Shown piece by piece: positions 1 through 15,570 of a DNA stretch of 15,570 nucleotides. The notes beneath the pieces are model-generated. The model searched no databases. It saw nothing but the letters and a program-made list of their open reading frames with translations, and was not told the origin of the DNA. Each line of letters opens with the position of its first letter. Position 1 is the first letter of the stretch. The position numbers were made by a program, and so were the translations under genes. Source of the DNA: Pseudomonadota bacterium (lineage in GTDB: Bacteria > Bdellovibrionota > FAC87 > UBA2466); NCBI GenBank assembly GCA_043767805.1, contig JAYUGC010000050.1, positions 1-15,570 on the forward strand, written 5' to 3'.

Positions 1-925
1 CAATCAAGGAAGACAGCGGGAACTGGAGCAGCAGGCCCACGCCGCCAATGAGAAAGAGCAGGACCACCGAGAAATTGACGGCGATTTTGCGCACGGGCGC
101 CATGGCGACGCTTTTTAACGTCTCGACGAACATGACTACGTTCGTGTTGGGAACCTCGTAGAAGAACCCGTAAGCGGGTCCCTGATCGGCTTCGAACTCG
201 AGCTGACCCTGATTCAAGGGAGCGGCGATGAACTGCTGGATGAGCTTTCTCGTGATGTAGTTGTTCTGGGTGATTTCCTGATCGTTTGAGAAAACGAGGC
301 GGCCTTCCTTGGTCAGCAGATAAAGCGTGTTCTTGTCGGGGCTCTTCACCGTTTCGCCGAGCCATTTACTCAGGTCGATTTTCCACATGGCGAAATAGGC
401 GCCGGAGGGCGTATTAGCCCCGAGCCAGCGCTGAAGGCTTCCGCCTCCGGAGGCTATGGTGAGAAAATGCTCGCCCGCGAATTGAAGGATCGTCCATTTG
501 GCGCCGAGCTTCGCGGTGGCCAGGTGAAGATCGTTGGGGCTCAAGGATTCCGGAAAATCGCCCCGGATTTTCATGAGCGTGCCGGACTCGGAGACTTTCA
601 AAATGACGTCGGGAGGCAAGTCCTCGCCGCCCGGGCGCCCTCGGAACTGCTCGAAAGTGTGAATGAGGTGGTTGCCTTGGCTTTCCAGCTCCAAAAAGAG
701 AATCGCCCAAGTGTCGGTTAGCTTATTCTTATAGACGACGCTCAAGGCGTAGATACCCGCCATGCCGCCCGCGAGAAAGATCGCGGCGAGAACCGTACTG
801 AGCAGAAGGCCCGCGATGGTCAGCCGAGGCTTGCGCAGCCGCTTGACCTTGGCTTTTCCGTCGGCCGCCGCCGTTTCGGCGACTTTGAGCTTTGGCGGCT
901 TCGCTTTTTTTGGCTTAGTGGCCAT
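1..925 (-). CDS. Membrane-bound sensor protein (TM1 - periplasmic Cache-like domain - TM2); 3' end and output domain lie outside the window
   Basis: Manual translation from ATG at 925 is open to position 1 (308 codons): MATKPKKAKPPKLK...LTIAGLLLSTVLAAIFLAGGMAGIYALSVVY (TM1)...TLYLLTKEGRLVFSND...AYGFFYEVPNTNVVMFVE (Cache/PAS-like strands)...IAVNFSVVLLFLIGGVGLLLQFPLSSLI (TM2). The start overlaps the last 11 nt of motB. Not in the ORF track because it has no stop in the window. Confidence 0.8.
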   Translation of the reverse strand, partial: MATKPKKAKPPKLKVAETAAADGKAKVKRLRKPRLTIAGLLLSTVLAAIFLAGGMAGIYALSVVYKNKLTDTWAILFLELESQGNHLIHTFEQFRGRPGGEDLPPDVILKVSESGTLMKIRGDFPESLSPNDLHLATAKLGAKWTILQFAGEHFLTIASGGGSLQRWLGANTPSGAYFAMWKIDLSKWLGETVKSPDKNTLYLLTKEGRLVFSNDQEITQNNYITRKLIQQFIAAPLNQGQLEFEADQGPAYGFFYEVPNTNVVMFVETLKSVAMAPVRKIAVNFSVVLLFLIGGVGLLLQFPLSSLI

Positions 926-1748
926 TCTTTTCCTTCTTTACGACGATGTGCACGCGCCGGTTCCGCTCCATGTTCTCGGCAATCCAGGATCCGTTCGCCC
1001 GGCGTTCGGGGAAGAGAGGCTCGATGGAGGCCATGGCACGGGTCAAAATCATTTTTTGAGGGACGCCCTGGTTGATGAGCTCTTCCGCGACCGCGCCTGC
1101 GCGCGCAGCCGAAAGCGACCAGTTGTTCGGATACAAAGATTTTTTCGAAGGCAGGGCGGAGTCGGTGTGGCCGACGATTTCGATGGCAAGCAGCCCTTTG
1201 ATGCGGCTCAAGTAGCGGGCGATGCGCCGGATGCCGATTTTCGCGTCGTTGGTAAGCTCCGCCGTGCCGCCCATAAAAAGCATGCCGCCGGGAAGGGCGA
1301 GCTCCACGCGGTCTTCCTTGTCCATCATCTGGGCTTTGAGCTTGGAGAGTACGTTGTCTTCTTTCGTCTCCATGCCTTCCATGAGCGCCTCTCGCGCCAT
1401 GGCGAGATTCTGCGTCTCGGCCACTTGCTTTTCGATTTTATCAACGGCCGCTTCCACGTTCTCACCGAGGTTCAGCATGGCGACGAGAAGCTGAAGCGCG
1501 CGGATTTGGCGCGCTTGCATCATCATGCCCACTTCGGTCTTGGTCTGAGCGGCTTTGACGTCGCCCTTGAAAGCTTCGGCGAGCTGCTTGCTCACGGAGT
1601 TGAACTTCTGATCGTCGACAGTAGAAAAGCTATACAAGATGACGAAGAAGCCGAAGAGAAGCGTCATCATGTCCGCGTAGGACACGATCCATAGCTCTCC
1701 TTCCTCTCCCCCACCTCGATGTGGCTTTTTTATGTCTCTGCCTAACAA
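915..1748 (-). CDS. motB: MotB-family stator protein (N-terminal TM with ion-binding Asp, C-terminal OmpA-like peptidoglycan-binding domain)
   Basis: WIVSYADMMTLLFGFFVILY matches the MotB TM motif; GHTDS...NNWSLSAARA...NRRVHIVV are OmpA_C motifs; TTG start with AAAGGA upstream; directly downstream of motA. Confidence 0.95.
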   Translation of the reverse strand: MLGRDIKKPHRGGGEEGELWIVSYADMMTLLFGFFVILYSFSTVDDQKFNSVSKQLAEAFKGDVKAAQTKTEVGMMMQARQIRALQLLVAMLNLGENVEAAVDKIEKQVAETQNLAMAREALMEGMETKEDNVLSKLKAQMMDKEDRVELALPGGMLFMGGTAELTNDAKIGIRRIARYLSRIKGLLAIEIVGHTDSALPSKKSLYPNNWSLSAARAGAVAEELINQGVPQKMILTRAMASIEPLFPERRANGSWIAENMERNRRVHIVVKKEKNGH

Positions 1749-1766
1749 AAACTATCCTTTCAAACT

Positions 1767-2588
1767 CTAGGCCGCCTGCTTGGGCGCCGCCGTCGGACGT
1801 GAAGGCTTGGTCTGTCTGCCGCGCTCGCTCGGGAGGAGGAAGGATTTCACCTTTTCTTCGACGAACTGAGTCGGCTTGTCGGCCGCAATCAACATGATCC
1901 CTTCCACCACCATGCGGCGGGAGATGAGGTCTTCCTTGCTCTGTTGCATGAGCTGCTCGGCGATCGGAATGAAAACGAAGTTCGAGAGCACGATTCCGTA
2001 AAGCGTCGCGACGAGAGCGATGGACATGGAGGGCCCGATGGCGTTCTTGCTGCCTTCCGAGCCTAAAGACTGGAGCAGCGCGATCATGCCGAGAGTCGTA
2101 CCGAGAAGACCGAAGGCGGGCGGAAAGCGCGACATCACGCGAAAGATTTCCGACTCGCCCAAATAGCGCTCGTAATGCGTTTCAGCGCGGGTCTCCAGCA
2201 GTTCGCGCAGGTCTTCGTGGGAGACTTCGGCGTCGAGCCAAAAGAGCACGTTGCCGGCGTCTTTCAGAAAGAGGTCGTCGACCTTGTTGACCGCCTGCTC
2301 GAAAGCCTGGCGGCCGCGGCGCGAGGCCTGCGAGAGGCCGATGATTTCCTGGATGAGGCCCGGGTAGTTGCGCTTGCTCTTGCCGATGACGCGGCGGAAG
2401 AACACTTTAAAGAGGCTGAAGATCTTGGGAAGCGAGAAGCAGACGCAGCTCGCGGCGACCGTGCCGCCGATTACGATTAGAATCGCGTGCTCGTCTAGAA
2501 AGACGTGGTAGTCCTTCGCCGAGCGGGCGACAGCCACCACAAATACGGTAATCGATAGTAGGAACCCGACCATCGAGGATAAATTCAT
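1767..2588 (-). CDS. motA: MotA/PomA-family stator protein
   Basis: AILIVIGGTVAA (TM2), PPAFGLLGTTLGMI (TM3), IGPSMSIALVATLYG...FIPIA (TM4); cytoplasmic SRRGRQAFE retains Arg and Glu at the torque-generating positions; AGGAG RBS at 2594-2598. Confidence 0.95.
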   Translation of the reverse strand: MNLSSMVGFLLSITVFVVAVARSAKDYHVFLDEHAILIVIGGTVAASCVCFSLPKIFSLFKVFFRRVIGKSKRNYPGLIQEIIGLSQASRRGRQAFEQAVNKVDDLFLKDAGNVLFWLDAEVSHEDLRELLETRAETHYERYLGESEIFRVMSRFPPAFGLLGTTLGMIALLQSLGSEGSKNAIGPSMSIALVATLYGIVLSNFVFIPIAEQLMQQSKEDLISRRMVVEGIMLIAADKPTQFVEEKVKSFLLPSERGRQTKPSRPTAAPKQAA

Positions 2589-2615
2589 GACTTCTCCTAA
2601 GCAGCACTAAAATCG

Positions 2616-4874
2616 TTATCCGGTTTTCTTCACCGGAGGCTTGGGCGGCGGCGAGGCCTGAGGCGTCACCGTTTTTTGCCCAATCGGCGTGGGCGTTGTT
2701 TTCTGGCCCATATTCGTGTTTTCCGTCGTTAAAGGTTTGAGGCCCGGGGAGGCCTTCGTGGCGCTGGCGGCGGCTCCCGCGCGAGCGATGCCGGTGTTGG
2801 TTCCGGTACTCGCGGGCTCTTTGCCCTTGCCGAAGGATCCTCCTCCGCCGCCCGCCGCCGCGGCCTTGGCCGTTTTGTCGCCGTCCCGGCGGATGACGCT
2901 GGTGAGCATGCCTTGCTCTTTCATGTCGGCGAGCTTCTTGACGATGACGTCCCGGACTCGTTTGAAAGCATATTGGGCTTGTCGGCCTCCGCGGCTCGAC
3001 AAGCTTTCGAACTCTTCCGCGATCATGCCCTTACGGCGGGCGGGCAGGCCCTGCATGATGACCTTGCGCTCGTCGTCCCGCACACCCAAGGCGAGGGCGG
3101 CGACGTCTTTATTGGAGAGCCCTTCGATGATTTCCGTGCGCGCTTCCTCGGTGAGCTTAAAGAGCGTGCGGATGGTGATGACGTTCTCACGGAAATAGAG
3201 ATCGAGGCGGGGATCCGAGGAAAGCTCGCGGACGATTTCTTCCGAGAGATCATCTTCGGCCGCTTCGATGATCTCTTTATAGACTTTGAGGAACGGACGC
3301 TGGGCATCGGACTTGGTGCGGTTCAAGATGGCTTCGATGCCGCGCATGAGGTCCGCGTCCTGATTGTTCGATTTCTCCGCTTCCGGCATTTTCGAAAGCA
3401 GGCCCAGGACCTTCGAGTAATTCTTGTTCGATGAGCCCTTCAAGCCGGCGAGCAGCATCGCGATCTTCGTGGCGTCGAGATAGAGGAAGAGGCGCGGCAT
3501 GAGCTCGGGCGCGAGCTCGATGGCTACGTTGGCCAAATCTTCGTCGGTGAGCTGGAGGACTTTTTCCGCGACCTTGTCGCTGGGGCGTCCGCGAGCCATG
3601 TCGAGAGAGTCGACGAGAAGTCTCGTTTTCAGCTCTTCGCCGGCCTCTAACATCATTTCCACTTTGGTGCTCTCGTAAGCGCCTTCCCGCATGAACTTTA
3701 AAATCGCTTCTTGAGAGTTGAGGCCGAGGCGCTTGAACATCTCGGTCGCCATTTCCCGGCCCAAGAGCTCGAGGGTGACCACCGCGCGGCCCACCGTCGC
3801 GGGGTTCGCGAGGAGCTGGGTGAGCTGACGGAGAATGACGGCTTCCGTGTTCTCGTTGGCGCTTTCCAAAATCTCGACCCGCAATTTCCCGAAATGCGTT
3901 TGCAGGGATTCCATCGGCAATGACGCGAGCCCGTGGCTCTTGTGCCCGCCTTCGCTGATGAACTTGCCTTCCATCACTTTCGGATCGGAGGAGCTGGGCG
4001 CGGCGACTCCCGTCGCGACGCCAATATTTGAGCCGACGCTCTCAACGGCCGCCGCCATGGTGGTGAAGGCATTGGTCAGGTTCTTGCCGGCCCCGCTGAT
4101 GCTTCTGCCCGCGAACCAAAGGCCCAAGAGGATGCAACCGAAGACGGCGACGATGACACCGAGGATGGCCCAGAGGGTCCATTTACCGAGGAAACCTTCT
4201 TGCTGATTCGCGCGCGCCAGATCGCGGCCGAGGCGATCGTTCTCGGCCTTCATGCGATCCAGGTTGTTTTTCAGCTCGCTCTTTTCCTGGCGCCAGGCAT
4301 CGGTATCGATCTCGATGCCGAGGTCGCCGAAGCGCACGCGGTCGCCGCGTTTTTGACTGAGCTCAAGCTCTTTGAAAAGGAGCTGCTGCAACCGGTTCTT
4401 GGTGCTGGCCAGACGGGCGGTGAGCAGAACTTCCAGCTCCACTTTCTGCACGTACGTTCCCAGCTCTTCGGTGGAGCGAGATAGAATGAGGCCCGACGGA
4501 TCGTAGGGCGTGAGCGGCAAAGCCTTCTTGGTCGGAGTCACGTTGACTGACACTTGGAACTCTCTCGCCGGGATGTAGCGCTCGAGCAGCTCGCGCGCTC
4601 TTTGCTCGAAGGCTTCCGTCAGAACGGCTTTCGTGTCGACGGTCTGGATCTTGCGGTTCTCGACGTCGGCCCCGATCGGCGGTCTCGCGGTCCCTCTGGC
4701 TTTTGCCGCGTCGCCGGTTTCCGGCGTGCTGCCGGGTCTTGCGCCTTTCGCGGGTTGGGCCCTTTCGCCAAAAGCGGACGACGCACCGGTGCCAGCGAGC
4801 AAAAAGCAAACGACGAAGGTCCACAACTGGAGCCGTTGTCGTCGATATTTAGGTTTTGCTTTTCTTACACTCAT
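2616..4874 (-). CDS. FliF(RBM3)-TM-FliG fusion protein; putative single-chain rotor
   Basis: N-terminal signal peptide (...FVVCFLLAGTGASSAFG). EQRARELLERYIP..FQVSVNV / VQKVELEVLL / LSQKRGDRVRF resembles FliF RBM3 (~4320-4622). TM at ~4107-4181. RAVVTLELLGREMATEMFKRLG resembles FliG_N. ENVITIRTLFKL...DVAALALGV...GLPARRKGMIAEEFE...IVKKLADMKEQG resembles FliG_C (~2904-3188). Low-complexity C-terminal tail. Confidence 0.8.
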   Translation of the reverse strand: MSVRKAKPKYRRQRLQLWTFVVCFLLAGTGASSAFGERAQPAKGARPGSTPETGDAAKARGTARPPIGADVENRKIQTVDTKAVLTEAFEQRARELLERYIPAREFQVSVNVTPTKKALPLTPYDPSGLILSRSTEELGTYVQKVELEVLLTARLASTKNRLQQLLFKELELSQKRGDRVRFGDLGIEIDTDAWRQEKSELKNNLDRMKAENDRLGRDLARANQQEGFLGKWTLWAILGVIVAVFGCILLGLWFAGRSISGAGKNLTNAFTTMAAAVESVGSNIGVATGVAAPSSSDPKVMEGKFISEGGHKSHGLASLPMESLQTHFGKLRVEILESANENTEAVILRQLTQLLANPATVGRAVVTLELLGREMATEMFKRLGLNSQEAILKFMREGAYESTKVEMMLEAGEELKTRLLVDSLDMARGRPSDKVAEKVLQLTDEDLANVAIELAPELMPRLFLYLDATKIAMLLAGLKGSSNKNYSKVLGLLSKMPEAEKSNNQDADLMRGIEAILNRTKSDAQRPFLKVYKEIIEAAEDDLSEEIVRELSSDPRLDLYFRENVITIRTLFKLTEEARTEIIEGLSNKDVAALALGVRDDERKVIMQGLPARRKGMIAEEFESLSSRGGRQAQYAFKRVRDVIVKKLADMKEQGMLTSVIRRDGDKTAKAAAAGGGGGSFGKGKEPASTGTNTGIARAGAAASATKASPGLKPLTTENTNMGQKTTPTPIGQKTVTPQASPPPKPPVKKTG

Positions 4875-4888
4875 CCAGACCTAAAAGT

Positions 4889-4918
4889 TCCTCCGCGAAG
4901 TAGAAAGCTACGCGGGGA
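4889..4918 (-). promoter_or_regulatory. Stem-loop in the 5' leader of the FliF-FliG gene that includes a GGAGGA Shine-Dalgarno-like sequence
   Basis: Minus strand reads TCC-CCGCG-TAG-CTTT-CTA-CTT-CGCGG-A-GGA (imperfect inverted repeat); GGAGGA lies in the 3' arm, 14 nt before the ATG. Confidence 0.35.
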
Positions 4919-4932
4919 TGTCCTCGAGTGAC

Positions 4933-4959
4933 TTTTCGGGTTAAAATCTAAATAGCTTA
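4933..4959 (-). promoter_or_regulatory. Putative sigma28 (FliA)-type promoter for the fliFG-motA-motB-sensor operon
   Basis: Minus strand TAAG-N15-CCCGAAAA versus consensus TAAA-N15-GCCGATAA, in an AT-rich divergent intergenic region about 60 nt upstream of the ATG. Confidence 0.45.
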
Positions 4960-4986
4960 AGTGGGCCAAACTTCATTGATTTCGAA

Positions 4987-5553
4987 ATGCCTACCCCCTC
5001 AAAAATTGCGCTTGTTTTAGCGATGGTTAGTTTGCTCGGCGCTTGCGCAGGGCGTCGGACCGTGACCTTCATTTCTCAGGAGCCCGGAGCCCAGCTGGCG
5101 CTCGTTCCCATGGAGTCTCCGGAAAGCGAAGGTACGAAGCTCAGGAACCCCGCCGCGGTCGACCTCGCCCAAATGAAGAATAAGGCGGTGCGTATATCCG
5201 CCACGGGCAAGGCGTCTCAGTACTGGTTCTCTTCCTTGGCCCAAGCGCCGCGAGTTCAGGTGAAGATCAAGCGCCTTGGCTCGTGCGAAGGGCAGGAGGG
5301 TAACCGCAACCGGCCGACGCGCTTACTCCTCAAGGCGTATCAGGCGCTCTACTCGAAGGACTTTTCGCTCGCGCGCGACTTGGCCTCGCGCGCGTCGCTC
5401 ATCGACACGACCCTCGCGGCCCCTCATATCATCACGGGTCTAGCCTTTCTGAAGGAAGGCGACAGGCCCAAGGCCCTCGCTTCGTTTAACCAGGCCCAGG
5501 CCTTGGATCCTGAAGATAGTGAGATCGGCTCTCTCATCAGGACGGCTCAGTGA
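4987..5553 (+). CDS. Lipoprotein with N-terminal beta-rich (PEGA-like) domain and C-terminal TPR repeats
   Basis: Lipobox LGA-C after a hydrophobic stretch; VTFISQEPGAQL is a PEGA-like start; LLKAYQALYSKDFSLARDLA..., APHIITGLAFLKEGDRPKALASFNQAQALDPED is a canonical TPR pattern. Confidence 0.8.
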   Translation: MPTPSKIALVLAMVSLLGACAGRRTVTFISQEPGAQLALVPMESPESEGTKLRNPAAVDLAQMKNKAVRISATGKASQYWFSSLAQAPRVQVKIKRLGSCEGQEGNRNRPTRLLLKAYQALYSKDFSLARDLASRASLIDTTLAAPHIITGLAFLKEGDRPKALASFNQAQALDPEDSEIGSLIRTAQ

Positions 5554-6185
5554 TACGGCGGTGGACGGCTTTGGCTGTCGGGCTTTGGGCCGTGGGCGCG
5601 CAAGCCATCGACACCACCGAAAATAGGAAGTTCGATCTCATTCTTCGCTCGGCCGTCGTGGCGGGGACCGTTACCCAAGACGGCCCGGATCCGGACCGTC
5701 CCACTCTCACGATCGGCACTCCGATTAAATACGGGGGAATGCTCATCGGTTTTGGCGTGAACTACGATCTCATGCGCTGGTTCAGCCTAGGGTTAGGGGC
5801 CCATTTCATCTTGGATTTGGCTCAGGGTTCCATCACCCGAAAGGGGCTCGAGATCACCGCGGGCTTTCATCTTTTGGGTGGGGCGCGCCGGATCATGACG
5901 GAAACGGATGACATGTCCTTGATGGAAAGAGACCCCTACGCGCTGACCTTTTTAGTGCGGCCCGGGTTTCAGAGCTATACCCCCGCGAGCGCCGCCACCG
6001 CGGCGGTCCAGGTCGACGCTTCTCTCATCGCCATGGATATGGGCCTGGAGTATCGGATAGACGCAGGCGAGGGATCGTCTATATCTTTGGCATTTTTGTA
6101 TAGTCTCATTTCACTTCCAGCCTCGGTTCCGAAGGCTAAATCCGCCCTGATGACCATCGAAGCCTCCTGGCACATCTTTCTCTAG
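5550..6185 (+). CDS. Putative small outer-membrane beta-barrel protein
   Basis: GTG start overlaps the upstream stop (GTGA); signal peptide ending AQA; alternating amphipathic strands (IGFGVNYDL, FSLGLGAHF, LEITAGFHL, MDMGLEYRI, ISLAFLY); C-terminal strand IEASWHIFL. Confidence 0.7.
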   Translation: MIRRWTALAVGLWAVGAQAIDTTENRKFDLILRSAVVAGTVTQDGPDPDRPTLTIGTPIKYGGMLIGFGVNYDLMRWFSLGLGAHFILDLAQGSITRKGLEITAGFHLLGGARRIMTETDDMSLMERDPYALTFLVRPGFQSYTPASAATAAVQVDASLIAMDMGLEYRIDAGEGSSISLAFLYSLISLPASVPKAKSALMTIEASWHIFL

Positions 6186-6261: not shown

Positions 6262-6351
6262 GCGACGTGGTACGTAGCTTTAGTTTCGTCTCCTTTCCTC
6301 GCTCCTCTTTCCTAGCTGAACCGCTAAAAAACTCCCTTTTATCGCAACGCA

Positions 6352-6379
6352 TAAAGTTTTCGGTTCGTTCTGCCGATCT
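6352..6379 (+). promoter_or_regulatory. Sigma28 (FliA/SigD)-type promoter
   Basis: TAAAGTTT-N12-GCCGATCT, close to the extended consensus TAAAGTTT-N11-GCCGATAA, ending 25 nt before ATG 6405. Confidence 0.7.
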
Positions 6380-6404
6380 AAACGCTGAGCCCCCTGAAGT
6401 ACGT

Positions 6405-9400
6405 ATGAAGACATTTATTAGATTCCAATTAGCGGTGTTCATCGGCCTACTGCTTTTACTGGGCGGTTGCCTGGGTTACGAAACCCCGGTCCAAACTCCC
6501 AACAGTAAAATGGTTTTCGGCTGTTTAAGCGATCCGGACGGCGCGGGCCCGGACGGCGATGTCGTCTATAACAAGGCGACGTCCACCGTTTCCATGAACT
6601 GGGGTTTCCCCAAGAAGGCTCAAGGCCAAGTTACGTACAAGATTTACGACGCCGACACCGGCGACGTGCTTCAAACGACGGGTAGCAACGAGTGGTCCTT
6701 CGCCGTCTCTCGCGATACCATCCGCGTTTACAATATATACGTCGAAGCGAGCGATGACACGGGTGAGACCGATTGTTACCTGCGCGATAAGGTCGTGCAG
6801 GTCGCCATCAATCCAGGCTCCGCGCCCGTCATGGGCCGCAGCTGGGCTTATCCCGTTTCCCACGACCGGATCCTGATCGTCTGGGAAAAATCCGTTTCCG
6901 AGCAGACGGCTCGCTACGATGTCTTCACGCGGGAAAGCGTGTTCACCGGTAACGGTTTCTTGATCGAAAACCCGGTCGCCATCGGCAATACGGTCAAGAC
7001 GTACTTTTTCGTGGATAAATTGGACCCGAGCTCCGAGTACAGCTTCATCGTGGAAGCGGTGAATACGGACGGCGTTCGTTCCTCGCGCCGCCAGGCCGTC
7101 ACCGCCACGACTCTCAGTACCGACCGGCCCGCGTTCAACGGAATTTTCCAAGTGAGCCGCCTCGGCGGCACTGCGGGCTTGAGCGGTCTCGAGATTAAGT
7201 TCAGTCCGAGTACCGATGCGTCGGTCACCGGCTATCGCCTCTTCATGTACCAGGGCGTTCTCGATTACGATATGCCGTTTGGTCTCTACGTTCCGCAAGT
7301 GCCCGTGCAGGCCGTCTCCATCGGGGGTTCGGCGGCGGGCTATCACGTGCCCCGGCTCGGGCCTGGATCCATTCCTTATGAGAGCATGACCATCAAGAAT
7401 CTTTCCGCTGATACCAATTATTGTTTCGTGCTGCGCGCGTTCCGGGGCGGTATCGTCGGGCCGGTGGTGCAGGAAGAGAACAACCTCCGGGTTTGTAATA
7501 AGACCAACTCCGTCAAAGCGCCAACCTTCATGGGCGTGAACACGGTCAACGCCGCGGACGGCGCGACGGGCTTTACCACTCTGAACGTGAACTTTCCGCA
7601 TCCGAACGCGGATGGCGTCTGGAATAAATTCCGGTTCCAGTACAAAGAGTTTGCGACGAATCCCGGTCCTAATTGCGCCGGTAAAGATCTCACCACCGGT
7701 TTGATGGAGTTTTACACGGCCGATGATACGGATGGTCTGACGACCTTCCCCGTGTCGGCGAGCATCAACGCGAACATGTACTACTGTTTCAAGGTAAACG
7801 CCGTGTATCAGTCCGGCTTAATCACTTTGGTCTCGGATACGAATACGAAATGGGCCTCCGGCCGAGCGCGTCCGCTGCCGCCGGTTTTCACGGGTCTCGT
7901 CTCCGTGATTCGCACGCCGAGCGAAGAGGGCGAGCTCTTTGACTCGTTCGACCTCATTTACCAACCGGCCTCAGGCAGTTTTACGGAGTACCTATACGAA
8001 GTGTCCACGAGCCCGACCTTCACCGCCATCGTGAAGTCTCAAACGCTCGCCGACAGCCCGAATACGACCCGTATTACTTTGTCGGGCTTGCCGAAGGCCA
8101 CCCAATTGTACGCGCGGGTTAGCGCCGTCTTCCGCGTGGGCACGGGCGTCGGTGCCTTCGAGCTGAAAGATACGGACGACACCATTCCGGCGCGCGCGCC
8201 CCGCTATCTCTCCCTCAATACCACGCCCACCGCCGCGGATAAGGAAGGTATTCTTTCCGTGACGCCCGTCACTCCCAAGTCGATTCGCATTACGGCTACT
8301 TTACCTGTGAACGCGGGCGCGACGTGGAATCAGAACGTGTTTTGGCTCGTCAGCGACTACTACGCGGGTTGCACCAGCACGCCCATTTACTGTCAGCTTG
8401 GAAAGACAGCGGCGCAGCTCATTGCGGACTACAAGACCAATCCGACCTGGATCGTCGGGACCGTGGGTCGCTTGGTCGATAACATTCAAGTGAACTCCCT
8501 CAAGGCGGACGTGCAGTATTGCGCCCAGTTCCGTTCGCGGTATCGCTCGGTAACCGACTCCTTGGACTCGGCCAGCAATACGAACGATCTTCAAAAAATG
8601 TGCGCGACCCCACGCTTGTTAGCGGCTCCGTTCGCGGGTGTGGCGAAATTGTATAACCGCAACGATGCGGGGGGCTTCACCCAGCTTTGGGCCAAATTCC
8701 CCATGCTGCCCAATGGCGACTCTTTTACTCGCTACAGAATTGGCTGGAGCTCGGGAACTGGCGCGGGACCCAATACGGTTACCTTTGCGGCCCCGCAAAC
8801 CCGCGAGATCACCACTCCTAATGCCGCCGGCGAAAACTGCATCATCAAAGGCACGGATTTACATTGTCCTATCGAGCTGAGTAACAACTTGGCCCCGAAC
8901 ACCAGGTTCTACGTCAAAGTTCGAACCGAGTTCGATTTCGAAGGGGAAAGCGCTGCGCCCACGGGAACGGCGTTCTCCGCGACCGCCGTAACGACCCCGG
9001 CGAGTCCTTCGCTCCCCACGGCGGTGGCCGCAGCTCCTTACGGATCTACCTCGGTGAAGGTGGACTTCAAGGCGGCTAAGAATCCGACGACGGTCGATAC
9101 GGCCGATGCGGATCGGCTCTCGGGACTTTGGAACAACGTTTTCATCTATGTGGCCAAGAGCGATCCCGCGGTCGATTCGATTGTGGCCAATAAGGGCGTC
9201 CTCAACTCCGCGGGACTTCGCGTGCCCATGGATTCCGACATTGCCGCGGTCGCTAACTCTCAAGGCGAGTTCATCCTGGGCGCGGTGGATCTCGACGCCG
9301 GTATCATTTTGCGGGCTAACCGCAGCATTCTAGCCGACAACGCGATGAACTCTCTCATCATCAAGAACCTAAGCCCGTTGGGAATGGGCATGCAGTATAA

Positions 9401-12400
9401 AATCAGAGTCGCGAACGTTTATTGGGACGGCACCGCGAATAATTACGTGACCAGCCAAACGGTCTCCGCGGCGGCGGCTCCCGAGGCTAAGGCGCCGACC
9501 TTCGCCGGCTGGAAAGATTTTTCGAAGTACCATGACGAGCGCGATTTCACGGAATTACGAGTTATCGTCGATCCTCCCGTGGGCGAGTGCACTTCCATGG
9601 AAGCGCTCGTTTTTGAAAAGTCGTATATCTACAGCGTCTCGGATTGGACCGCGAGTAGCGGCGCCAAAGTGGAAAAAGAGCTTCCCTGCAGCGCGAGCGA
9701 GCTCGTATTCAATCGCGCCTTGGCCGGCACCGCCGGAGCCTTGCTGCCTGGAAAAGAGTATCACGTCCGCGTGCGTGCGGTGAACGTGGTGGGCACCGAG
9801 ATTTATACGACGGGCGAAAGCAAACAATCCACCGAAGCGAACCTCATGCAGCCGGTGCGTCCGTCGAGCGCCGACTTGGACACGACTCCCCTCGTTTTGA
9901 CGAGCCTTGCGAACTCTCCGGATAAGATTCGGGTCAATTTCAAGACGCCGACGCTCGGAGACTTCAACAAGGTGATGGTGTTCTATACGAGCCAGCTCAT
10001 TTCGGCGGGAAATTCCACGCTTCAGAAAAACTCGTTGATGGAACAGATGAAGACTCAGATCGTCACGGGACCTCCGAAACTCAGAGGCCCGGAAGCTTTG
10101 GTAGCGGGGGGAACGGCTCCTTTGGCGGGTACGACGGTCTTCACTCAACCCGTGCCGACCACCTCGGCGGCTCAGTCGATAAACTGGGAGCTTACCAGTG
10201 CGGTGGTAGGCAACCGATATTGCTTCGGCGTGCTGGCCATGTATGCGGTGACGGATGATTTTAGTGACGATCGGTACTTGCCCAGTCTTCCGGACGGCGA
10301 GCTTCCCGCGGACACTCAAGTCCAGTGCATCGATCTTCCGTTTACCCCCTCGGGCCTTACGAACGTGGCTCTTTCCAGCGCGGTCATGGACTCGGCTACG
10401 TGCCCGGACAACTCGAGTCAGCACTACATTCGCTTGACCTTCGCGAACCCGGCGGCGAGCGCGGCGACCATCGAGAGGTGGAAAATATTCATCGCGAACG
10501 GCGTGGATACCCTCAACTTCGGCGATACGAATGGCGACTCCTGGCAAGAAATTGCGAAAGGCGATTCCGTCCGCGACAAGAGCTCGGCCGGTTACCTTCT
10601 CGTCGGTTGCGAGGGCAAGGTTCCGGGAGGAAAGACTCACTTCCTCGTGAAGTGGGAATTTGGCGGCAGCGCCATCAACGACGTCTTCTCCAATCGCTAC
10701 AACACCACCCCGCTTAACATCAGTGCGGCGGAGTCCAACTTTGTCTGGGTACCCAAGAAGATTTCGGGTCTTTCGTATCCGTACCTCATGAACACCTTCG
10801 AGGCGTCTCGCGATGGCGTAACGGGGTCGTTCGGAACGGAAGCGGTCGCCGCGGAAAGCGCGCTGGATGATTGCAATGCGGCTTACCACTCGAACGGATC
10901 GCTGTCCCTTTGCGGTACTTCTTCCACCGGCAAGGTGCGCTCCATCAAGGGGGCGGTGCCGATGTCGGCCAACTGGAAGACTGCGTGGTGGGCCTGCCGT
11001 CAGAGCTCTCCCGTGAAAGGAATGCTCTGGCGTCTGCCCACTCAACAGGAATGGGTGCGAGCCTCCAAGTGGCCTTCGGCGGAGTACACGGTTGCCGCGG
11101 CGGACATCAACTCCCAGGCTTTGACCAATTGTAACGTGCTGCCGGTGAACCATTCTATCGGCGTGACGGGCGATAGGCCTAGCTGCGTATCGACCGTCGG
11201 CGCGGTCGACATGGTTGGCCGTTCGCGGGAATGGGTGGATGCCCGGCTCCAACGTTTCGATGAGACGAACGCTCGTCTCGGCTGGAGCCCGATTTTGGGC
11301 CGCATGATCGATAACGGTATCGATCGCCTGACCTACCGCTTACACGAGATCGTCCCCCCGGCCAATGGCTTGGGACTCTTGATGGGTAGCGATTTCGGAA
11401 ATACGGCGACTTATCAGCTCGCAGTCGACGCCGAGACTCAGCTTTGGAAAGACATCACCTATTCCAACGCGGCGGAAAGCGCGCCGGTGACTGGTTTCCG
11501 TTGCATGGGCTTGGTGAAAGCGCTGATGCCGACGGTCGATCAGCTGGCTCTCCCGCAAGAGCCGGTATATACGGCGGCGGAAGTGCCGGCAGGTGCCCCC
11601 GCTAGCTGGAAAATTCCGGAAGGCCGGTTCATCAAGGATACGCGCCCCGAGTCCGTACGCATCGTCGTCACTGACGATACGACGCCGAAAGGGAAAGTCC
11701 AGATATTCTGGCCGTCCTGGACGAAGGCTTGCTCAGGCACTTGCACGATGTCCTATGACATCTACCGCGCGGTCGAGCCGAACCACATCGATTCCCGGTT
11801 CACCACGTCTTGGGCGCTTCCGGGAGATGCCACCAATCCGAGCCCGTACAACAGCGCGCTGCCTCTCGATCCCTTGGCGACCGATGCCTCGGGTAACCAG
11901 GTTTGGACGCCGGTGGGCGCAAACCTCCCCGAAACGTACAACGTTTGTACTTCGACCACGGCCCCGAAGCTCCCGCCCGTCGCGGGAACGCTCGCGGCTC
12001 CTACGGGTAACTGCTATGAGTTCGACTACACGTCGGGCTCCGCGGTCGCCGCGGGCGAGAACAAGCGCATGTATCTTTACATGGTAGTCGCGAAGGACAG
12101 CCAAGGTAACCGGATGCCGCCTATGGTCCAGCGGTTCCGTACGCCGTATCTCTCGGGCGATTTCAGTCAGGGCGCGAAGGCTTCCTTCCGTCAGGAAATG
12201 CGCTGGCGGCGAGCTTCCGTCGGAGCGGTCGCCGAGACGTTCCAGTCTAGTAAGACGATTGCTCAGGTCTTGGTGCACGTGCCGATGGATATATCGGGAC
12301 ATGACCACGATTATTACATTCAGAAATATGAAAGTTTCCTCTACGACGGCACGGTGAACGACAACGGTGCCTCTGCCGCCAACCCCATTTCAGATGTGGC

Positions 12401-13379
12401 CGGTGTCTGGAGCCCGAATCTGGCGACTTGCACGGAATCCACCGAGCGAGACAGCTCGGTCTTCCCCTCCGAGTGCGGAACTTTGGGCACGTCGGCGAGA
12501 TTTGGCTCTAAACAAGGCACGACTCCCCTCGGCAATACCGTGTCCACCTCGGTGAGCTACGCTTCGCTCTGGAGAGGTTGCCGCAACAGCTCTTCCGACA
12601 TCACGGAAGGCACGGCGACCTATCGGTACAATCTGCACTCGCCCTCGGGCGCGGAGTACACGAAAGCTTCCGACTGGGGGGACGTGAATTTCGACAATTC
12701 CGTGGATCAGAATCCGTGGCTTGCCAACGGAACCAATGTCCGAAACGTCGAGTTTTCCAACGACGGAGCTCCGGTGGGACCGAGTCTAACGAGCTGCTTT
12801 ACGGAAGCTTGGGACGGCGTCACCTCTCCGGCGCCTGGCGCGAATCCTCCGATTACGGCCACGACTCCGGCCCTCACGGGTAGCCGTGCGAACTGCATCA
12901 GCCGTTACGGCGCGGTGGACCTCGTGGGTAACGCGTGGGAAATCAATGCCGAGCGTATTTACTGGCCGAGCCATTCCCCGACCGACCTCGGTATGATCCA
13001 AGACAACGGGCTCGATGGGCTGTGGCTTGGTCTTCAGGAAGAGCGCTTCGACTTAACCCTGAACTCCCTTCGCGTGAACCTCATCCGCGGTATCCCTTAC
13101 TTGTTCCACGGCAACCTTACCGCGGCGGACGGTATTACTCCGGCGCCGAGCACTCCGATCCTGTGGTTGCCGGGCTGGGAATTCGGTACTTACGCGACGG
13201 TAGCCATGGGCGGCGGATTCATGGAACGTTGGGCTTCGGGTAATAACAGTCAAAAGGGCACGACCATGAGCATGGGTCGGTTCGGCCGCGGCGCTGATAT
13301 CGCGAGCGGTAACAACCATGCGTCCGACATGAAAGCCACCGCCGGTCTCATTCGCCATGGCGGCCGCTGCGCCCGGTAA
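6405..13379 (+). CDS. Giant (~2324 aa) lipoprotein with ~11 fibronectin type III-like domains and two FGE-sulfatase (SUMF1)/C-type-lectin-fold domains; putative adhesin
   Basis: Start reassigned to ATG 6405 because MKTFIRFQLAVFIGLLLLLGG-C is a lipoprotein signal. Fn3 signatures LDPSSEYSFIVEAVN, LSADTNYCFVLRA, LAPNTRFYVKVR, LLPGKEYHVRVRAVN and others. FGE-like motifs WRLPTQQEW...GAVDMVGRSREWV...GFRC (~10734-11510) and SPSGAEY...YGAVDLVGNAWE...GGRCAR* (~12264-13379). Confidence 0.85.
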   Translation: MKTFIRFQLAVFIGLLLLLGGCLGYETPVQTPNSKMVFGCLSDPDGAGPDGDVVYNKATSTVSMNWGFPKKAQGQVTYKIYDADTGDVLQTTGSNEWSFAVSRDTIRVYNIYVEASDDTGETDCYLRDKVVQVAINPGSAPVMGRSWAYPVSHDRILIVWEKSVSEQTARYDVFTRESVFTGNGFLIENPVAIGNTVKTYFFVDKLDPSSEYSFIVEAVNTDGVRSSRRQAVTATTLSTDRPAFNGIFQVSRLGGTAGLSGLEIKFSPSTDASVTGYRLFMYQGVLDYDMPFGLYVPQVPVQAVSIGGSAAGYHVPRLGPGSIPYESMTIKNLSADTNYCFVLRAFRGGIVGPVVQEENNLRVCNKTNSVKAPTFMGVNTVNAADGATGFTTLNVNFPHPNADGVWNKFRFQYKEFATNPGPNCAGKDLTTGLMEFYTADDTDGLTTFPVSASINANMYYCFKVNAVYQSGLITLVSDTNTKWASGRARPLPPVFTGLVSVIRTPSEEGELFDSFDLIYQPASGSFTEYLYEVSTSPTFTAIVKSQTLADSPNTTRITLSGLPKATQLYARVSAVFRVGTGVGAFELKDTDDTIPARAPRYLSLNTTPTAADKEGILSVTPVTPKSIRITATLPVNAGATWNQNVFWLVSDYYAGCTSTPIYCQLGKTAAQLIADYKTNPTWIVGTVGRLVDNIQVNSLKADVQYCAQFRSRYRSVTDSLDSASNTNDLQKMCATPRLLAAPFAGVAKLYNRNDAGGFTQLWAKFPMLPNGDSFTRYRIGWSSGTGAGPNTVTFAAPQTREITTPNAAGENCIIKGTDLHCPIELSNNLAPNTRFYVKVRTEFDFEGESAAPTGTAFSATAVTTPASPSLPTAVAAAPYGSTSVKVDFKAAKNPTTVDTADADRLSGLWNNVFIYVAKSDPAVDSIVANKGVLNSAGLRVPMDSDIAAVANSQGEFILGAVDLDAGIILRANRSILADNAMNSLIIKNLSPLGMGMQYKIRVANVYWDGTANNYVTSQTVSAAAAPEAKAPTFAGWKDFSKYHDERDFTELRVIVDPPVGECTSMEALVFEKSYIYSVSDWTASSGAKVEKELPCSASELVFNRALAGTAGALLPGKEYHVRVRAVNVVGTEIYTTGESKQSTEANLMQPVRPSSADLDTTPLVLTSLANSPDKIRVNFKTPTLGDFNKVMVFYTSQLISAGNSTLQKNSLMEQMKTQIVTGPPKLRGPEALVAGGTAPLAGTTVFTQPVPTTSAAQSINWELTSAVVGNRYCFGVLAMYAVTDDFSDDRYLPSLPDGELPADTQVQCIDLPFTPSGLTNVALSSAVMDSATCPDNSSQHYIRLTFANPAASAATIERWKIFIANGVDTLNFGDTNGDSWQEIAKGDSVRDKSSAGYLLVGCEGKVPGGKTHFLVKWEFGGSAINDVFSNRYNTTPLNISAAESNFVWVPKKISGLSYPYLMNTFEASRDGVTGSFGTEAVAAESALDDCNAAYHSNGSLSLCGTSSTGKVRSIKGAVPMSANWKTAWWACRQSSPVKGMLWRLPTQQEWVRASKWPSAEYTVAAADINSQALTNCNVLPVNHSIGVTGDRPSCVSTVGAVDMVGRSREWVDARLQRFDETNARLGWSPILGRMIDNGIDRLTYRLHEIVPPANGLGLLMGSDFGNTATYQLAVDAETQLWKDITYSNAAESAPVTGFRCMGLVKALMPTVDQLALPQEPVYTAAEVPAGAPASWKIPEGRFIKDTRPESVRIVVTDDTTPKGKVQIFWPSWTKACSGTCTMSYDIYRAVEPNHIDSRFTTSWALPGDATNPSPYNSALPLDPLATDASGNQVWTPVGANLPETYNVCTSTTAPKLPPVAGTLAAPTGNCYEFDYTSGSAVAAGENKRMYLYMVVAKDSQGNRMPPMVQRFRTPYLSGDFSQGAKASFRQEMRWRRASVGAVAETFQSSKTIAQVLVHVPMDISGHDHDYYIQKYESFLYDGTVNDNGASAANPISDVAGVWSPNLATCTESTERDSSVFPSECGTLGTSARFGSKQGTTPLGNTVSTSVSYASLWRGCRNSSSDITEGTATYRYNLHSPSGAEYTKASDWGDVNFDNSVDQNPWLANGTNVRNVEFSNDGAPVGPSLTSCFTEAWDGVTSPAPGANPPITATTPALTGSRANCISRYGAVDLVGNAWEINAERIYWPSHSPTDLGMIQDNGLDGLWLGLQEERFDLTLNSLRVNLIRGIPYLFHGNLTAADGITPAPSTPILWLPGWEFGTYATVAMGGGFMERWASGNNSQKGTTMSMGRFGRGADIASGNNHASDMKATAGLIRHGGRCAR

Positions 13380-13467: not shown

Positions 13468-14112
13468 ATGGAAGCTATCCGGAGCCTCGTCGACTTGTTC
13501 TTGCATCTAGATCACCACTTGGCCGCGGTCATCGCGGACTATGGTCCCATGACATACGTAATCTTGTTCCTGGTGATTTTTTGCGAGACGGGCCTCATCG
13601 TCCTGCCCATTCTCCCTGGCGACTCACTGCTCTTCGCGGCCGGGGCGCTCGCGGTCACTACCGATCTCAAGGTGGAAATTCTGATTCCACTTCTGTTAGT
13701 GGCCGCTATCCTAGGGGATGCGGTCAACTACGCTGTCGGCCATTACCTGGGGCCGAAAGTGCTCACCGAGAATCATCGCTTTCTGAAGCGAGCGTATTTG
13801 GAAAAAACCCATCATTTTTACGAGAAGTACGGCGGCAAGACCATCCTCTTTGCCCGCTTCGTTCCCATCGTGCGCACCTTCGCTCCTTTTCTCGCGGGCG
13901 TCGGCGGAATGACGTATAGCCGGTTCTTTGCGTACAACGTTTCGGGAGCCGTGCTCTGGATTTTTCTCTTCGTCCTCGCGGGCTATAACTTCGGCAACAT
14001 TCCCGTGGTGAAACAGAACTTCACCCTGGTCATTTTAGGCATCATTGTCGTTTCCGTGTTACCGGCCGTGGTCGAATTTCTGAAGTCCCGGCAGAAACCC
14101 GAGTTGAGGTAG
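13468..14112 (+). CDS. dedA: DedA family membrane protein
   Basis: FCETGLIVLPILPGDSLLFAAG, LGDAVNYAVG and YGGKTILFARFVPIVRTFAPFLAG are DedA hallmarks. Confidence 0.95.
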   Translation: MEAIRSLVDLFLHLDHHLAAVIADYGPMTYVILFLVIFCETGLIVLPILPGDSLLFAAGALAVTTDLKVEILIPLLLVAAILGDAVNYAVGHYLGPKVLTENHRFLKRAYLEKTHHFYEKYGGKTILFARFVPIVRTFAPFLAGVGGMTYSRFFAYNVSGAVLWIFLFVLAGYNFGNIPVVKQNFTLVILGIIVVSVLPAVVEFLKSRQKPELR

Positions 14113-14118
14113 TAGTCC

Positions 14119-15570
14119 ATGGCTCGAGACACGCTTTATCTAATCGACGGCAGCTCCTATATTTTCCGCGCTTACTTCGCGATTCAGCGGCTTTCCACTT
14201 CCAAAGGTTTTCCGACGAACGCCATCTACGGCTTCGTGAACATGCTGATGAAAGTCTTGGAGGAGAAGAAGCCTAAGCTTTTAACGATCGCGTTCGATAC
14301 GCCGAAGCCGAGCTTCCGTAAGGAAATGTTCCCCGAGTACAAGGCGAACCGCGAGCGCCCGCCCGAAGATCTCATTCCTCAATTCGCCCCTATTCAGCGG
14401 TCGGTGGAGGCCTTCGGGGTCATGCCTTTGCGCATCGAAGGCTGGGAAGCGGACGACATCATTGGTACGCTTGCTCGCCGGGCGGAGCGGGAGGGGTACG
14501 CGGTCGAGATCATCAGCGGTGACAAGGACCTCATGCAGCTCGTGACCGATCACGTGCGGCTCTACGAGCCGATGTCGGACCGTCAGTACGATGCCACCGC
14601 GGTCTTCGAGAAGTTTCAGGTGCGGCCCGACCAAATCGTCGATTACCTCGCGCTCATGGGAGATAGCTCCGATAACATTCCGGGCGTCGCGGGCATCGGC
14701 AAGAAGACGGCGGCCGAGCTGCTCACCCAGTTCGGATCTCTCGATGGCATTTACGAGAACCTCGAGTCCATTAAAAGCGAGAAGCGGCGGGAAACTTTGA
14801 AGCAGGAAAAAGACATCGCTTACCTGAGTAAGCGGCTCACTCAGCTCGATTGCGACATGAAGCTCCCCGTGACCTGGGACGAGCTACATTATAAGGGGCC
14901 GGATTTGCCGAAGCTTCAGGCCTTCCTCACCGAGTTCGAGTTCACGGGACTGATGAAGCGCTTCGACATGAAGGTCGAGACGCCCACCATGGATCGCGGT
15001 AAGGTCGTCATCCTGCGCACGGAGAAAGAGCTCGATGAGGCGTTGACCGTACTCAGCCAAGCGGCTCGGGTTGCGGTGGACACCGAGACGACGTCCCTGC
15101 AGCCGCACGATGCGGACCTCGTGGGGGTCTCTCTCTGCGGCGGGATGGATGAGTCCTACTATCTTCCGCTCGGCCACTATATTTCGGACGGCGAGAAACG
15201 CGAGTTGGCCCAAGGTCAGATGGACGCCTCCGCGGCCAAGGCGCTGCTCAAGCCCTTTCTCGAGAACGCGGCCATTCGCAAGACCGGCCAGAACATCAAG
15301 TACGACACGCAAGTGTTGCGGCGCTGGGGCGTTGAGATGGCGGGAGTCGTTTCCGATACGATGATCGCAAGCTATCTCATCGAGCCCGACGAGCCGCATA
15401 ACATGGATAGCTTGGCGTCCAAGTATCTCGGCCATCAGACCATCAAGTACGAAGACGTCACGGGAAAAGGGAAATCCCAAGTCTCCTTCGCTGAAGTGGA
15501 GATTAGTAAGGCCGCGGACTATTCGGCCGAAGACGCCGAAGTGACGCTAAAGCTCGAGAAGACGCTCGTG
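14119..15570 (+). CDS. polA: DNA polymerase I (5'-3' exonuclease and 3'-5' exonuclease domains; truncated at the window end)
   Basis: Manual translation from ATG 14119, open to the end (484 codons): LYLIDGSSYIFRAYFA, PTNAIYGF, YKANR, EADDIIG, SGDKDLMQL, LMGDSSDNIPGVAGIGKKTA, then AVDTETTSL, GQNIKYD, DTMIASYL, YSAEDA. GAGG RBS upstream. Confidence 0.97.
   Translation, partial: MARDTLYLIDGSSYIFRAYFAIQRLSTSKGFPTNAIYGFVNMLMKVLEEKKPKLLTIAFDTPKPSFRKEMFPEYKANRERPPEDLIPQFAPIQRSVEAFGVMPLRIEGWEADDIIGTLARRAEREGYAVEIISGDKDLMQLVTDHVRLYEPMSDRQYDATAVFEKFQVRPDQIVDYLALMGDSSDNIPGVAGIGKKTAAELLTQFGSLDGIYENLESIKSEKRRETLKQEKDIAYLSKRLTQLDCDMKLPVTWDELHYKGPDLPKLQAFLTEFEFTGLMKRFDMKVETPTMDRGKVVILRTEKELDEALTVLSQAARVAVDTETTSLQPHDADLVGVSLCGGMDESYYLPLGHYISDGEKRELAQGQMDASAAKALLKPFLENAAIRKTGQNIKYDTQVLRRWGVEMAGVVSDTMIASYLIEPDEPHNMDSLASKYLGHQTIKYEDVTGKGKSQVSFAEVEISKAADYSAEDAEVTLKLEKTLV

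Follow-up and report, generated by a model that had tools for sequence, protein, structure and literature searches.

A natural FliF-FliG fusion encoded with its own motA and motB in Bdellovibrionota: candidate rotor subunit of an envelope motor apart from the flagellum

Background

FliG and the plugged MotAB stator are commonly taken as specific to the flagellum. Whether bacteria may put this pair to another use is the question raised by a stretch of 15,570 nucleotides (hereafter the window; contig JAYUGC010000050.1 of assembly GCA_043767805.1) from a member of the Bdellovibrionota (GTDB lineage FAC87; UBA2466). One of its genes joins a ring-building motif (RBM) domain of the MS-ring protein FliF, a transmembrane (TM) helix and the domains of the rotor protein FliG in a single polypeptide, and is followed directly by motA and motB. 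The module is a concrete candidate for such another role. We regard it as probable, if far from certain, that the fusion supplies the rotor of an envelope motor that stands alone, has no switch and is driven by MotAB; such a motor would be a homologue of the flagellar motor core that serves no flagellum.

A single open frame with many relatives

The natural fusion that the initial annotation of this DNA had proposed at 2904..4622 was borne out, this span being residues 85-657 of one 752-amino acid (aa) open frame (Table 1), although it left out a signal peptide at the N-terminus (residues 1-36) and, at the other end, a tail of low complexity (residues 664-752). The domain order put forward with it, namely an RBM3-like domain, a coiled coil, a TM helix, a helix pair and then FliG_N, FliG_M and FliG_C, agrees with AlphaFold models, fold searches and profile-profile alignments. 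The guess that automatic annotation would see little in this gene was also right, Pfam reporting only MgtE_N (1.3e-5) and a FliG_C match just under the cut-off (9e-5). With the single protein as query, neither Pfam nor NCBIfam gave any FliF family match (YscJ_FliF and YscJ_FliF_C were absent from Pfam at E<=1), and YscJ_FliF_C was found at E<=0.01 in none of 24 relatives scanned, which were taken from the 107 described below. Gly, Ala, Thr, Pro and Lys abound in the tail (2616-2885, minus strand), which varies among the relatives and frequently ends in KKAA.

An artefact of assembly, a concern already voiced in the initial annotation, is excluded by read-derived contigs and by the number of relatives. 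One Logan contig, from run X1 (possibly the run from which this DNA came), spans positions 800-5476 with 0 differences, and contigs from two further runs of the same study bridge the junction between the TM helix and FliG_N (3702-4541 and 3708-4495), again with 0 differences. A word-based search returned 14 proteins, each covering 91-100% of residues 70-665, and the profile built from them matched 334 cluster representatives at E<=0.001. Of the representatives, 122 reach E<=1e-30, and these are mostly full length. The family alignment consists of the 107 proteins, out of 157 fetched, that are 580-850 aa long. A hydrophobic N-terminal region is present in 95 of these 107 relatives, 68 of the 95 having a signal-peptidase-like motif according to a rough regular expression. 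Past residue 60, exactly one TM segment was predicted in 95 of the 107 full-length relatives and two in 12.

Three of the four relatives with a taxonomic label are given as Bdellovibrionota or as a family within it. Atlas clusters of look-alikes with FliG domains, which are leads only, come mostly from Bdellovibrionota and also from Balneolota, Bacteroidota, Cloacimonadota and Elusimicrobiota; one look-alike cluster carries YscJ_FliF_C on 15% of its members, likewise a lead only. A metagenome scan for the module yielded 1 locus.

The periplasmic part is a FliF RBM3 domain on a stalk

AlphaFold modelled residues 75-226 with a predicted local distance difference test (pLDDT) score of 93.9, as a helix, strand, insert, strand, helix and strand followed by a 34-residue helix. 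The topology is that of an RBM3-type domain (alpha-beta-insert-beta-alpha-beta) in which the beta-collar is reduced to a short insert containing PYxP. With this model as query the first 17 Foldseek rows were all FliF rings (best E 3.9e-4), and a search independent of Foldseek over 48,161 chains put three FliF RBM3 structures on top (Z 11.1, 10.0 and 9.5), the best match being 8z5v with a root-mean-square deviation (rmsd) of 2.2 over 93 aligned residues. The next folds were OsmC-like proteins (Z 7.3), SpoIIIAG (6.8), PrgK (6.5) and EscJ (6.4). FliF RBM3 is the best match by a wide margin. Independent support comes from sequence: a profile of 30 canonical FliF proteins of the host family aligns with residues 73-188, through FliF positions 229-420 only (probability 86%, E 5.1e-6). 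In this alignment the RGD motif is in register, and the beginning of the collar corresponds to the PYxP of the fusion family. The KRGD had been placed exactly at 4341-4352, and its R, G and D are each the most frequent residue of their column among the 107 relatives (R 50, G 52, D 63).

The proportions differ from those of FliF. The insert that separates strand 1 from strand 2, helical and coil in the model, has a median length of 33 residues (25-50) in the fusion relatives and of 88 in FliF, while the distance from the end of the RBM to the TM helix has a median of 88 residues (21-178 in the 107 relatives, ~50 in the fusion of the window) against 33 in the 30 FliF proteins. Since a median of only 42 residues precedes the RBM domain in the 107 relatives, RBM1 and RBM2 are missing. 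TM1, RBM1 and RBM2 (the YscJ_FliF region) are not present in the fusion, and PF01514 found only the gene on contig C38 in the host genome. To call the protein an MS ring and a C ring in one polypeptide, as had been done, was thus overstated: of the MS ring only the S-ring domain is there, without RBM1 or RBM2, and the FliM-binding motif of the C ring is lost. When four copies of the RBM domain were predicted as a complex, the score was 0.02, and we draw nothing from it in either direction on ring formation.

The cytoplasmic part is FliG with torque charges and no FliM-binding motif

Residues 317-665 were modelled with a pLDDT of 94.7, and the top 12 Foldseek rows and the top 14 VIA rows were all FliG. 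Residues 6-325 of Aquifex FliG (3hjl) align to positions 40-345 of the model (278 aligned) with a high rmsd, as expected because the domain arrangements differ. FliG_C taken alone gave Z 12.1 and rmsd 2.1 with 1qc7, and Z 11.3 and rmsd 2.2 with 8ucs. Identity to canonical FliG in the structural alignments is 12-19%. The profile of the fusion family matches FliG M-C at E 1.3e-21, and in the profile-profile alignment residues 359-663 pair with FliG 11-336 (probability 97.3%). A reading as MgtE N-domain or generic ARM repeats only, considered from the beginning, was rejected on the FliG order of the domains and on the scores, FliG reaching Z 10.3-12.8 against 4.7-6.0 for MgtE, with Foldseek armadillo matches at E>=0.12.

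R613, E620 and E621, at positions of torque residues in FliG, align with the torque-helix charges of both the Thermotoga maritima FliG and the host's own FliG. Among the 107 relatives, 84 have R or K at 613, 97 have D or E at 620 and 94 have D or E at 621. The EHPQ motif, through which FliG binds FliM, was found in 0 of 107 fusion relatives against 28 of 28 canonical FliG proteins, and the Gly-Gly hinge of FliG is replaced in the fusion family, where its columns read R-P-Y/F. To judge by the sequence pattern, charges kept together with EHPQ lost fits a rotor that would still meet a stator and would no longer bind the FliM switch.

The initial annotation had read the protein as the terminal part of FliF linked to a complete FliG. 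For RBM3 and for FliG N-M-C this holds; that the helix pair in front of FliG_N (the sequence quoted for it lies at residues 334-355, positions 3810-3875) corresponds to FliF_C is plausible from its position and register. A Trp occurs at the FliF_C-matching column of the pair in 8 of 107 relatives. The wide structure search put the FliF_C:FliG_N crystal chains (5tdy_D and 5wuj_B) on the C-terminal domain of the model and not on the N-terminal one, and because of this their placement says nothing on co-folding. In a quick version of the FliG tree the fusion sits on a long branch from the FliG of the host family and 22 of 44 forks are open, and for these reasons we claim no direction of evolution.

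The fusion forms an operon with its own stator genes

Gene order was compared at seven loci (the window, L012-L015, L019 and L020), each as far as its sequence reaches. The fusion is directly followed by motA in 7/7 and motB comes next in all six loci that extend that far. The motA product of the window matches MotP (4.5e-45) and PomA (2.6e-40), both under the cut-off. A tree was built of 20 MotA proteins, taken from six genomes and a single metagenome contig. The 7 module MotAs fall together in it (FastTree support 0.999), separate from the flagellar MotAs that these genomes also encode, and R90, R/K91 and E97 are kept in all seven. If, as we assume from the motifs, T164, A194 and T195 of the module MotA correspond to T158, T185 and T186 of PomA, two of the three sodium-stator threonines are present in 7/7. 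These three PomA threonines are tied to sodium use in the available text of PMC10374538.

A membrane phosphatase gene of the HAMP-SpoIIE type overlaps or follows motB at all six loci reaching it, a TPR lipoprotein and a barrel flank the fusion at the six loci with upstream sequence, and the giant lipoprotein is found at four of the five loci with enough sequence (window, L012, L014 and L015; not L019). The HAMP-SpoIIE gene of the window continues at the end of host contig C58 (71564-73731 together with the next gene). It is followed by a 412-aa exported protein, which like HAMP-SpoIIE stays downstream of motB and for which, apart from one weak match, Pfam gave nothing in the three relatives scanned. 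The barrel was recognised through a relative that matches OMP_b-brl (1.1e-5), with TP_0126 and OMP_b-brl look-alikes as leads only. The giant lipoprotein contains a weak FGE-sulfatase-like stretch (E 0.006) and has no paralog in the host genome at E<=1e-5; the relatives found in the same place differ in size and one has TIG repeats.

Table 1 Features of the fusion gene and of its surroundings in the window
Feature	Position	Strand	Size or residues	Remarks and basis
Fusion gene, FliF-RBM3 / stalk / TM / FliF_C-like / FliG, rotor candidate	2616..4874	-	752 aa	Single open frame
Predicted N-terminal signal peptide	4767..4874	-	1-36	Hydrophobic 17-35; putative cleavage; hydropathy
Periplasmic ring-building domain, FliF RBM3 type	4323..4634	-	81-184	Structure model, fold search, profile-profile alignment
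KRGD	4341..4352	-	175-178	
Long periplasmic helix / coiled-coil stalk	4200..4301	-	192-225	Model; longer in most relatives
Single TM helix	4119..4175	-	234-252	Hydropathy, one strong segment
Helix pair at FliF_C position	3810..3914	-	321-355 (helices 321-337, 341-355)	Model
FliG_N-like domain	3576..3809	-	356-433	Structure and profile alignment
FliG_M, connecting helix, ARM_C	3189..3575	-	434-562	EHPQ and Gly-Gly motifs not kept
FliG_C	2904..3188	-	563-657 (Pfam 553-655)	
Torque helix in FliG_C	3012..3038	-	R613, E620, E621	
motA, flagellar type	1767..2588	-	273 aa	27 bp downstream of fusion; R90, R91, E97 kept
motB	915..1748	-	277 aa	Plug and OmpA domain; conserved Asp26; 18 bp after motA
Membrane HAMP-SpoIIE (PP2C-type) gene, 5' part	2..925	-		Overlaps motB
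Divergent TPR lipoprotein	4987..5553	+	188 aa	Start 112 bp from fusion start
Small outer-membrane beta-barrel	5550..6185	+	211 aa	
Giant FN3-repeat lipoprotein	6267..13379	+	Open frame 2370 aa	Likely start ~46 codons in; looser locus member
DedA/VTT-family membrane protein and start of DNA polymerase I-like gene	13468..15570	+		Polymerase gene recognised by eye; ordinary genes, locus edge

Independence from the flagellum

The host genome has separate fliF, fliG, motAB, fliM, flhA and rod genes elsewhere, and no switch, export, rod or filament genes were found at the module loci. Five other genomes of the host family carry the fusion. Flagellin was found in three of them and not in the other two, G004 (94% complete) and G020 (92%). 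Five family searches (flagellin, rod, FlhA, FliM and FliF RBM3) gave no match in either of these two, so five independent flagellar families are missing together, and the sole FliG_C and the sole MotB plug of each genome belong to the fusion module. FliF RBM3 was found in 30 of the 34 host-family genomes and the four without it all belong to genus g4, home of G004 and G020. With RBM1, RBM2 and the FliM-binding motif gone, the fusion itself is unable to form either a normal MS ring or a C ring that switches. That it forms an operon with its own motA and motB, stands apart from the flagellar genes of the host and is kept in apparently flagellum-less relatives is the larger point, and goes beyond what had been claimed for this DNA.

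Paralogous modules and other FliG-type neighbours of motAB

A second module is found in the host genome on contig C157 (43713-46830, plus strand), where a 563-aa RBM/TM/FliG protein is followed by a divergent motA and by motB and preceded by genes for a TPR protein and further exported proteins. All three sodium-stator threonines are present in the MotA of this module. A fusion paralog of 617 aa (E 3e-127) is located on contig C91 (62841-65914, minus strand), between homologues of the lipoprotein and of the barrel and near the contig end. Contig C33 (12910-13410, minus strand) encodes a stand-alone FliG_C protein of 166 aa with no membrane anchor, and similar short proteins are found in the genomes G001, G008 and G027.

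The five carriers have 13 motB loci that fall outside the flagellar group, and at 10 of these a FliG-type gene adjoins motB. Five of the 10 are modules like that of the window, another four were recognised as well (one of them at no better than E 4e-5), and the last is located where a contig ends. More motAB pairs with a lipoprotein and a neighbour of 608-610 aa are located at L085 (6752-10948) and L086 (91-8033), the order at L086 being giant protein, TPR lipoprotein, motA, motB and FliG-type fusion. At L087, L088 and L089 no FliG-type neighbour was detected beside the motAB pairs, which are also outside the flagellar group; two of these three have a long MotB (366-396 aa) with a C-terminal part that aligns poorly with the others.

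A proposed mechanism and its alternatives

From this anatomy, with its homologies and its gene order, we infer ring assembly, stator engagement and one-way rotation along the following lines. The signal peptide, by prediction and homology, would place RBM3 and the helical stalk in the periplasm, and on the cytoplasmic side the one TM helix would be followed by the FliF_C-like helix pair and then by FliG N-M-C. As in FliF and FliG, a ring would form through RBM3-RBM3 contacts outside and stacking of FliG M-C inside, the fusion fixing the FliF:FliG ratio at 1:1. The residues and the operon suggest that the co-encoded MotA5B2 would be anchored to peptidoglycan by the OmpA domain of MotB and take ions at MotB Asp26, while R90, R91 and E97 of MotA would push the FliG torque helix at R613, E620 and E621. 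The loss of motifs suggests the rest: no FliM/FliN would mean no CheY switch and one-way turning, and no RBM1/2 and no beta-collar would mean no export gate and no rod.

What such a motor would drive is a guess, and a doubtful one even if the motor is granted. The stalk might raise the ring toward the outer membrane; there the TPR lipoprotein and the barrel would relay work to a surface protein, for example the giant FN3 lipoprotein, in surface movement, attachment or display, with the HAMP-SpoIIE protein as a possible regulator. The whole picture would be that of a second machine on the FliG-MotAB gear, a switchless ring on coiled-coil stalks whose torque would pass through the periplasm to a module in the outer membrane and there move or deploy giant surface lipoproteins. 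The machine would be present in several paralogous versions per genome and outlast the loss of the flagellum. We offer it tentatively, its chances falling somewhat short of even.

Several points weigh against the stand-alone motor. The three torque charges occur together in only 69 of the 107 relatives, and position 631, matching the second torque arginine, is R or K in 51. The helix pair is in register with the FliF C-terminus, yet it scores 14.6-14.9 against 15.6 for other helical windows, which are poor controls because they are located in FliG's own repeats. Presence is patchy, with strong fusion matches in 5 of 33 other genomes of the host family; a sample of the phylum covering 372 genomes from other families gave 0 at E<=1e-25 (three candidates scored per genome). 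G004 and G020 are fragmented metagenome-assembled genomes (480 and 230 contigs) of one genus, so the loss of the flagellum counts as one event and absence there means "not found". The C91 paralog has no motAB adjoining it in the assembly; it may share the stator of the window. The ring, its rotation and the contact between stator and rotor are candidates reached by reasoning from homologues, and the output through lipoprotein, barrel and surface protein is a guess only. In addition, three motAB pairs are reported to serve one flagellum in Bdellovibrio bacteriovorus, as cited in the available text of PMC12827227.

MotAB could act instead on one or a few fusions, with no rotation of a large ring, the stalk pulling or twisting outer-membrane partners in the manner of the TonB, TolA and GldM arms, or load being sensed via HAMP-SpoIIE. 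An energy transducer or mechanosensor of this kind would suit the long stalk (median 88 residues) and the phosphatase gene next to motB at every locus reaching it, and it gains from the fact that ring formation is itself the conjectural step in the motor. We find it unlikely, as RBM3 is a ring-forming domain in FliF, the full FliG N-M-C, whose known role is ring polymerisation, has been kept, and the stator is plugged and OmpA-anchored, a design described as specific to flagellar stators in the available text of PMC12505986.

The module might also be an auxiliary of the host flagellum, a spare stator set with an alternative rotor or a decoy subunit that tunes swimming. The host and three of the five carriers tested have flagellin or other flagellar genes, the case of B. 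bacteriovorus points the same way, and a MotA with the usual rotor-contact charges could act on an ordinary FliG. Against this stand the two carriers in which the five family searches found no flagellar genes, the linkage of the fusion to non-flagellar envelope genes, and the absence of RBM1/2, most of the collar and EHPQ, without which the protein can neither house an export gate, hold a rod nor bind FliM, all of which makes such a role quite improbable.

A minimal secretion or translocation ring, in which a SpoIIIAG/SctJ-like channel would draw on the work of MotAB and FliG to bring cargo, the giant lipoprotein or another, through the periplasm, is suggested by the SpoIIIAG, PrgK and EscJ matches of the RBM fold (Z 6.8, 6.5 and 6.4) and by the very large exported lipoproteins adjoining the module at four of five loci and at the paralogous module L086. 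These scores are however within the range of a common fold, the barrel is small (~210 aa), no FlhA/SctV match was obtained in G004 or G020 and no ATPase or export-gate gene was seen at the loci, so that we judge this highly improbable. That the module is a relic, now in decay, of some flagellar operon that was duplicated or lost, as the 12-19% identity to canonical FliG, the lost motifs and the patchy presence (5/33, 0/372) might suggest, is barely credible for an intact frame of fixed architecture over 122 clusters at E<=1e-30, with selectively kept torque charges, conserved gene order and a long branch from the host-family FliG in the quick tree.

Comparison with known systems

A description of the fusion-motAB module was not found in the literature searched, in which subscription journals were mostly not covered; PMC12505986 and PMC12199754 have supplementary tables in which such proteins might appear. 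In the available text of these papers, plugged, OmpA-bearing stators are treated as flagellar (PMC12505986), and a survey of 11,365 genomes finds rotor proteins in 11% of non-motile species and raises another function for them (PMC12199754). If the fusion does belong to a stand-alone motor, FliG would have its first use outside the flagellum here, and the machine would offer a living model of a filament-less motor, either ancestral to or derived from the flagellar motor; with a rotor-stator set of three genes, it would also be smaller than any FliG-based motor known. Through the module it would be possible to test the sufficiency of RBM3 and FliG for a turning ring, the size of a ring without export gate and the use of a motor without filament. 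Moreover, fliG and motAB matches in a genome do not imply swimming.

A natural FliF-FliG fusion as such has a precedent, with a different architecture, in the Chlamydiaceae, where it is found in a non-flagellated setting (Bergeron 2016, PMC4768692). The available text of that paper gives a protein of ~330 aa with two TM helices, RBM2 without RBM3 and only FliG_M; it describes no FliG_C torque domain and names no stator among the flagellar genes. In the laboratory fusions of Salmonella and Vibrio alginolyticus (PDB 8z4d) the C-terminus of FliF is likewise joined to the start of FliG, but the whole FliF is kept and the product is part of a flagellum, while the fusion of the window is natural and has RBM3 only. 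The engineered Vibrio fusion forms MS rings, according to the available text of PMC10941966.

ExbBD-TonB, TolQRA, AglRQS-Glt, ZorAB and GldLM, the non-flagellar 5:2 motors, resemble the module in having an ion-driven stator that acts on envelope partners, GldLM being unrelated to these stators. To our knowledge none of them uses FliG. Small barrels and TPR lipoproteins occur in Agl-Glt too; the similarity by profile is limited to a weak GltE match (E 0.036). The ExbBD, TolQR, AglRQS and ZorAB stators lack the flagellar plug and OmpA design, as far as the available text of PMC12505986 describes them.

The flagellar motor core (FliF, FliG and MotA5B2 or PomA5B2) shares with the module an RBM3 with RGD-type motif, a TM helix followed by a helix pair and FliG N-M-C, the charges of the torque helix and a plugged, OmpA-anchored stator. 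It differs in that the fusion is one chain in which a signal peptide replaces TM1-RBM1-RBM2, the collar insert is 33 instead of 88 residues long, the stalk 88 instead of 33, and EHPQ is missing. No rod, export or switch genes are present at the fusion locus, and the fusion occurs in genomes in which no flagellar genes were found. The fusion lacks several of the features that define a flagellar motor, yet most likely it works like the flagellar motor core.

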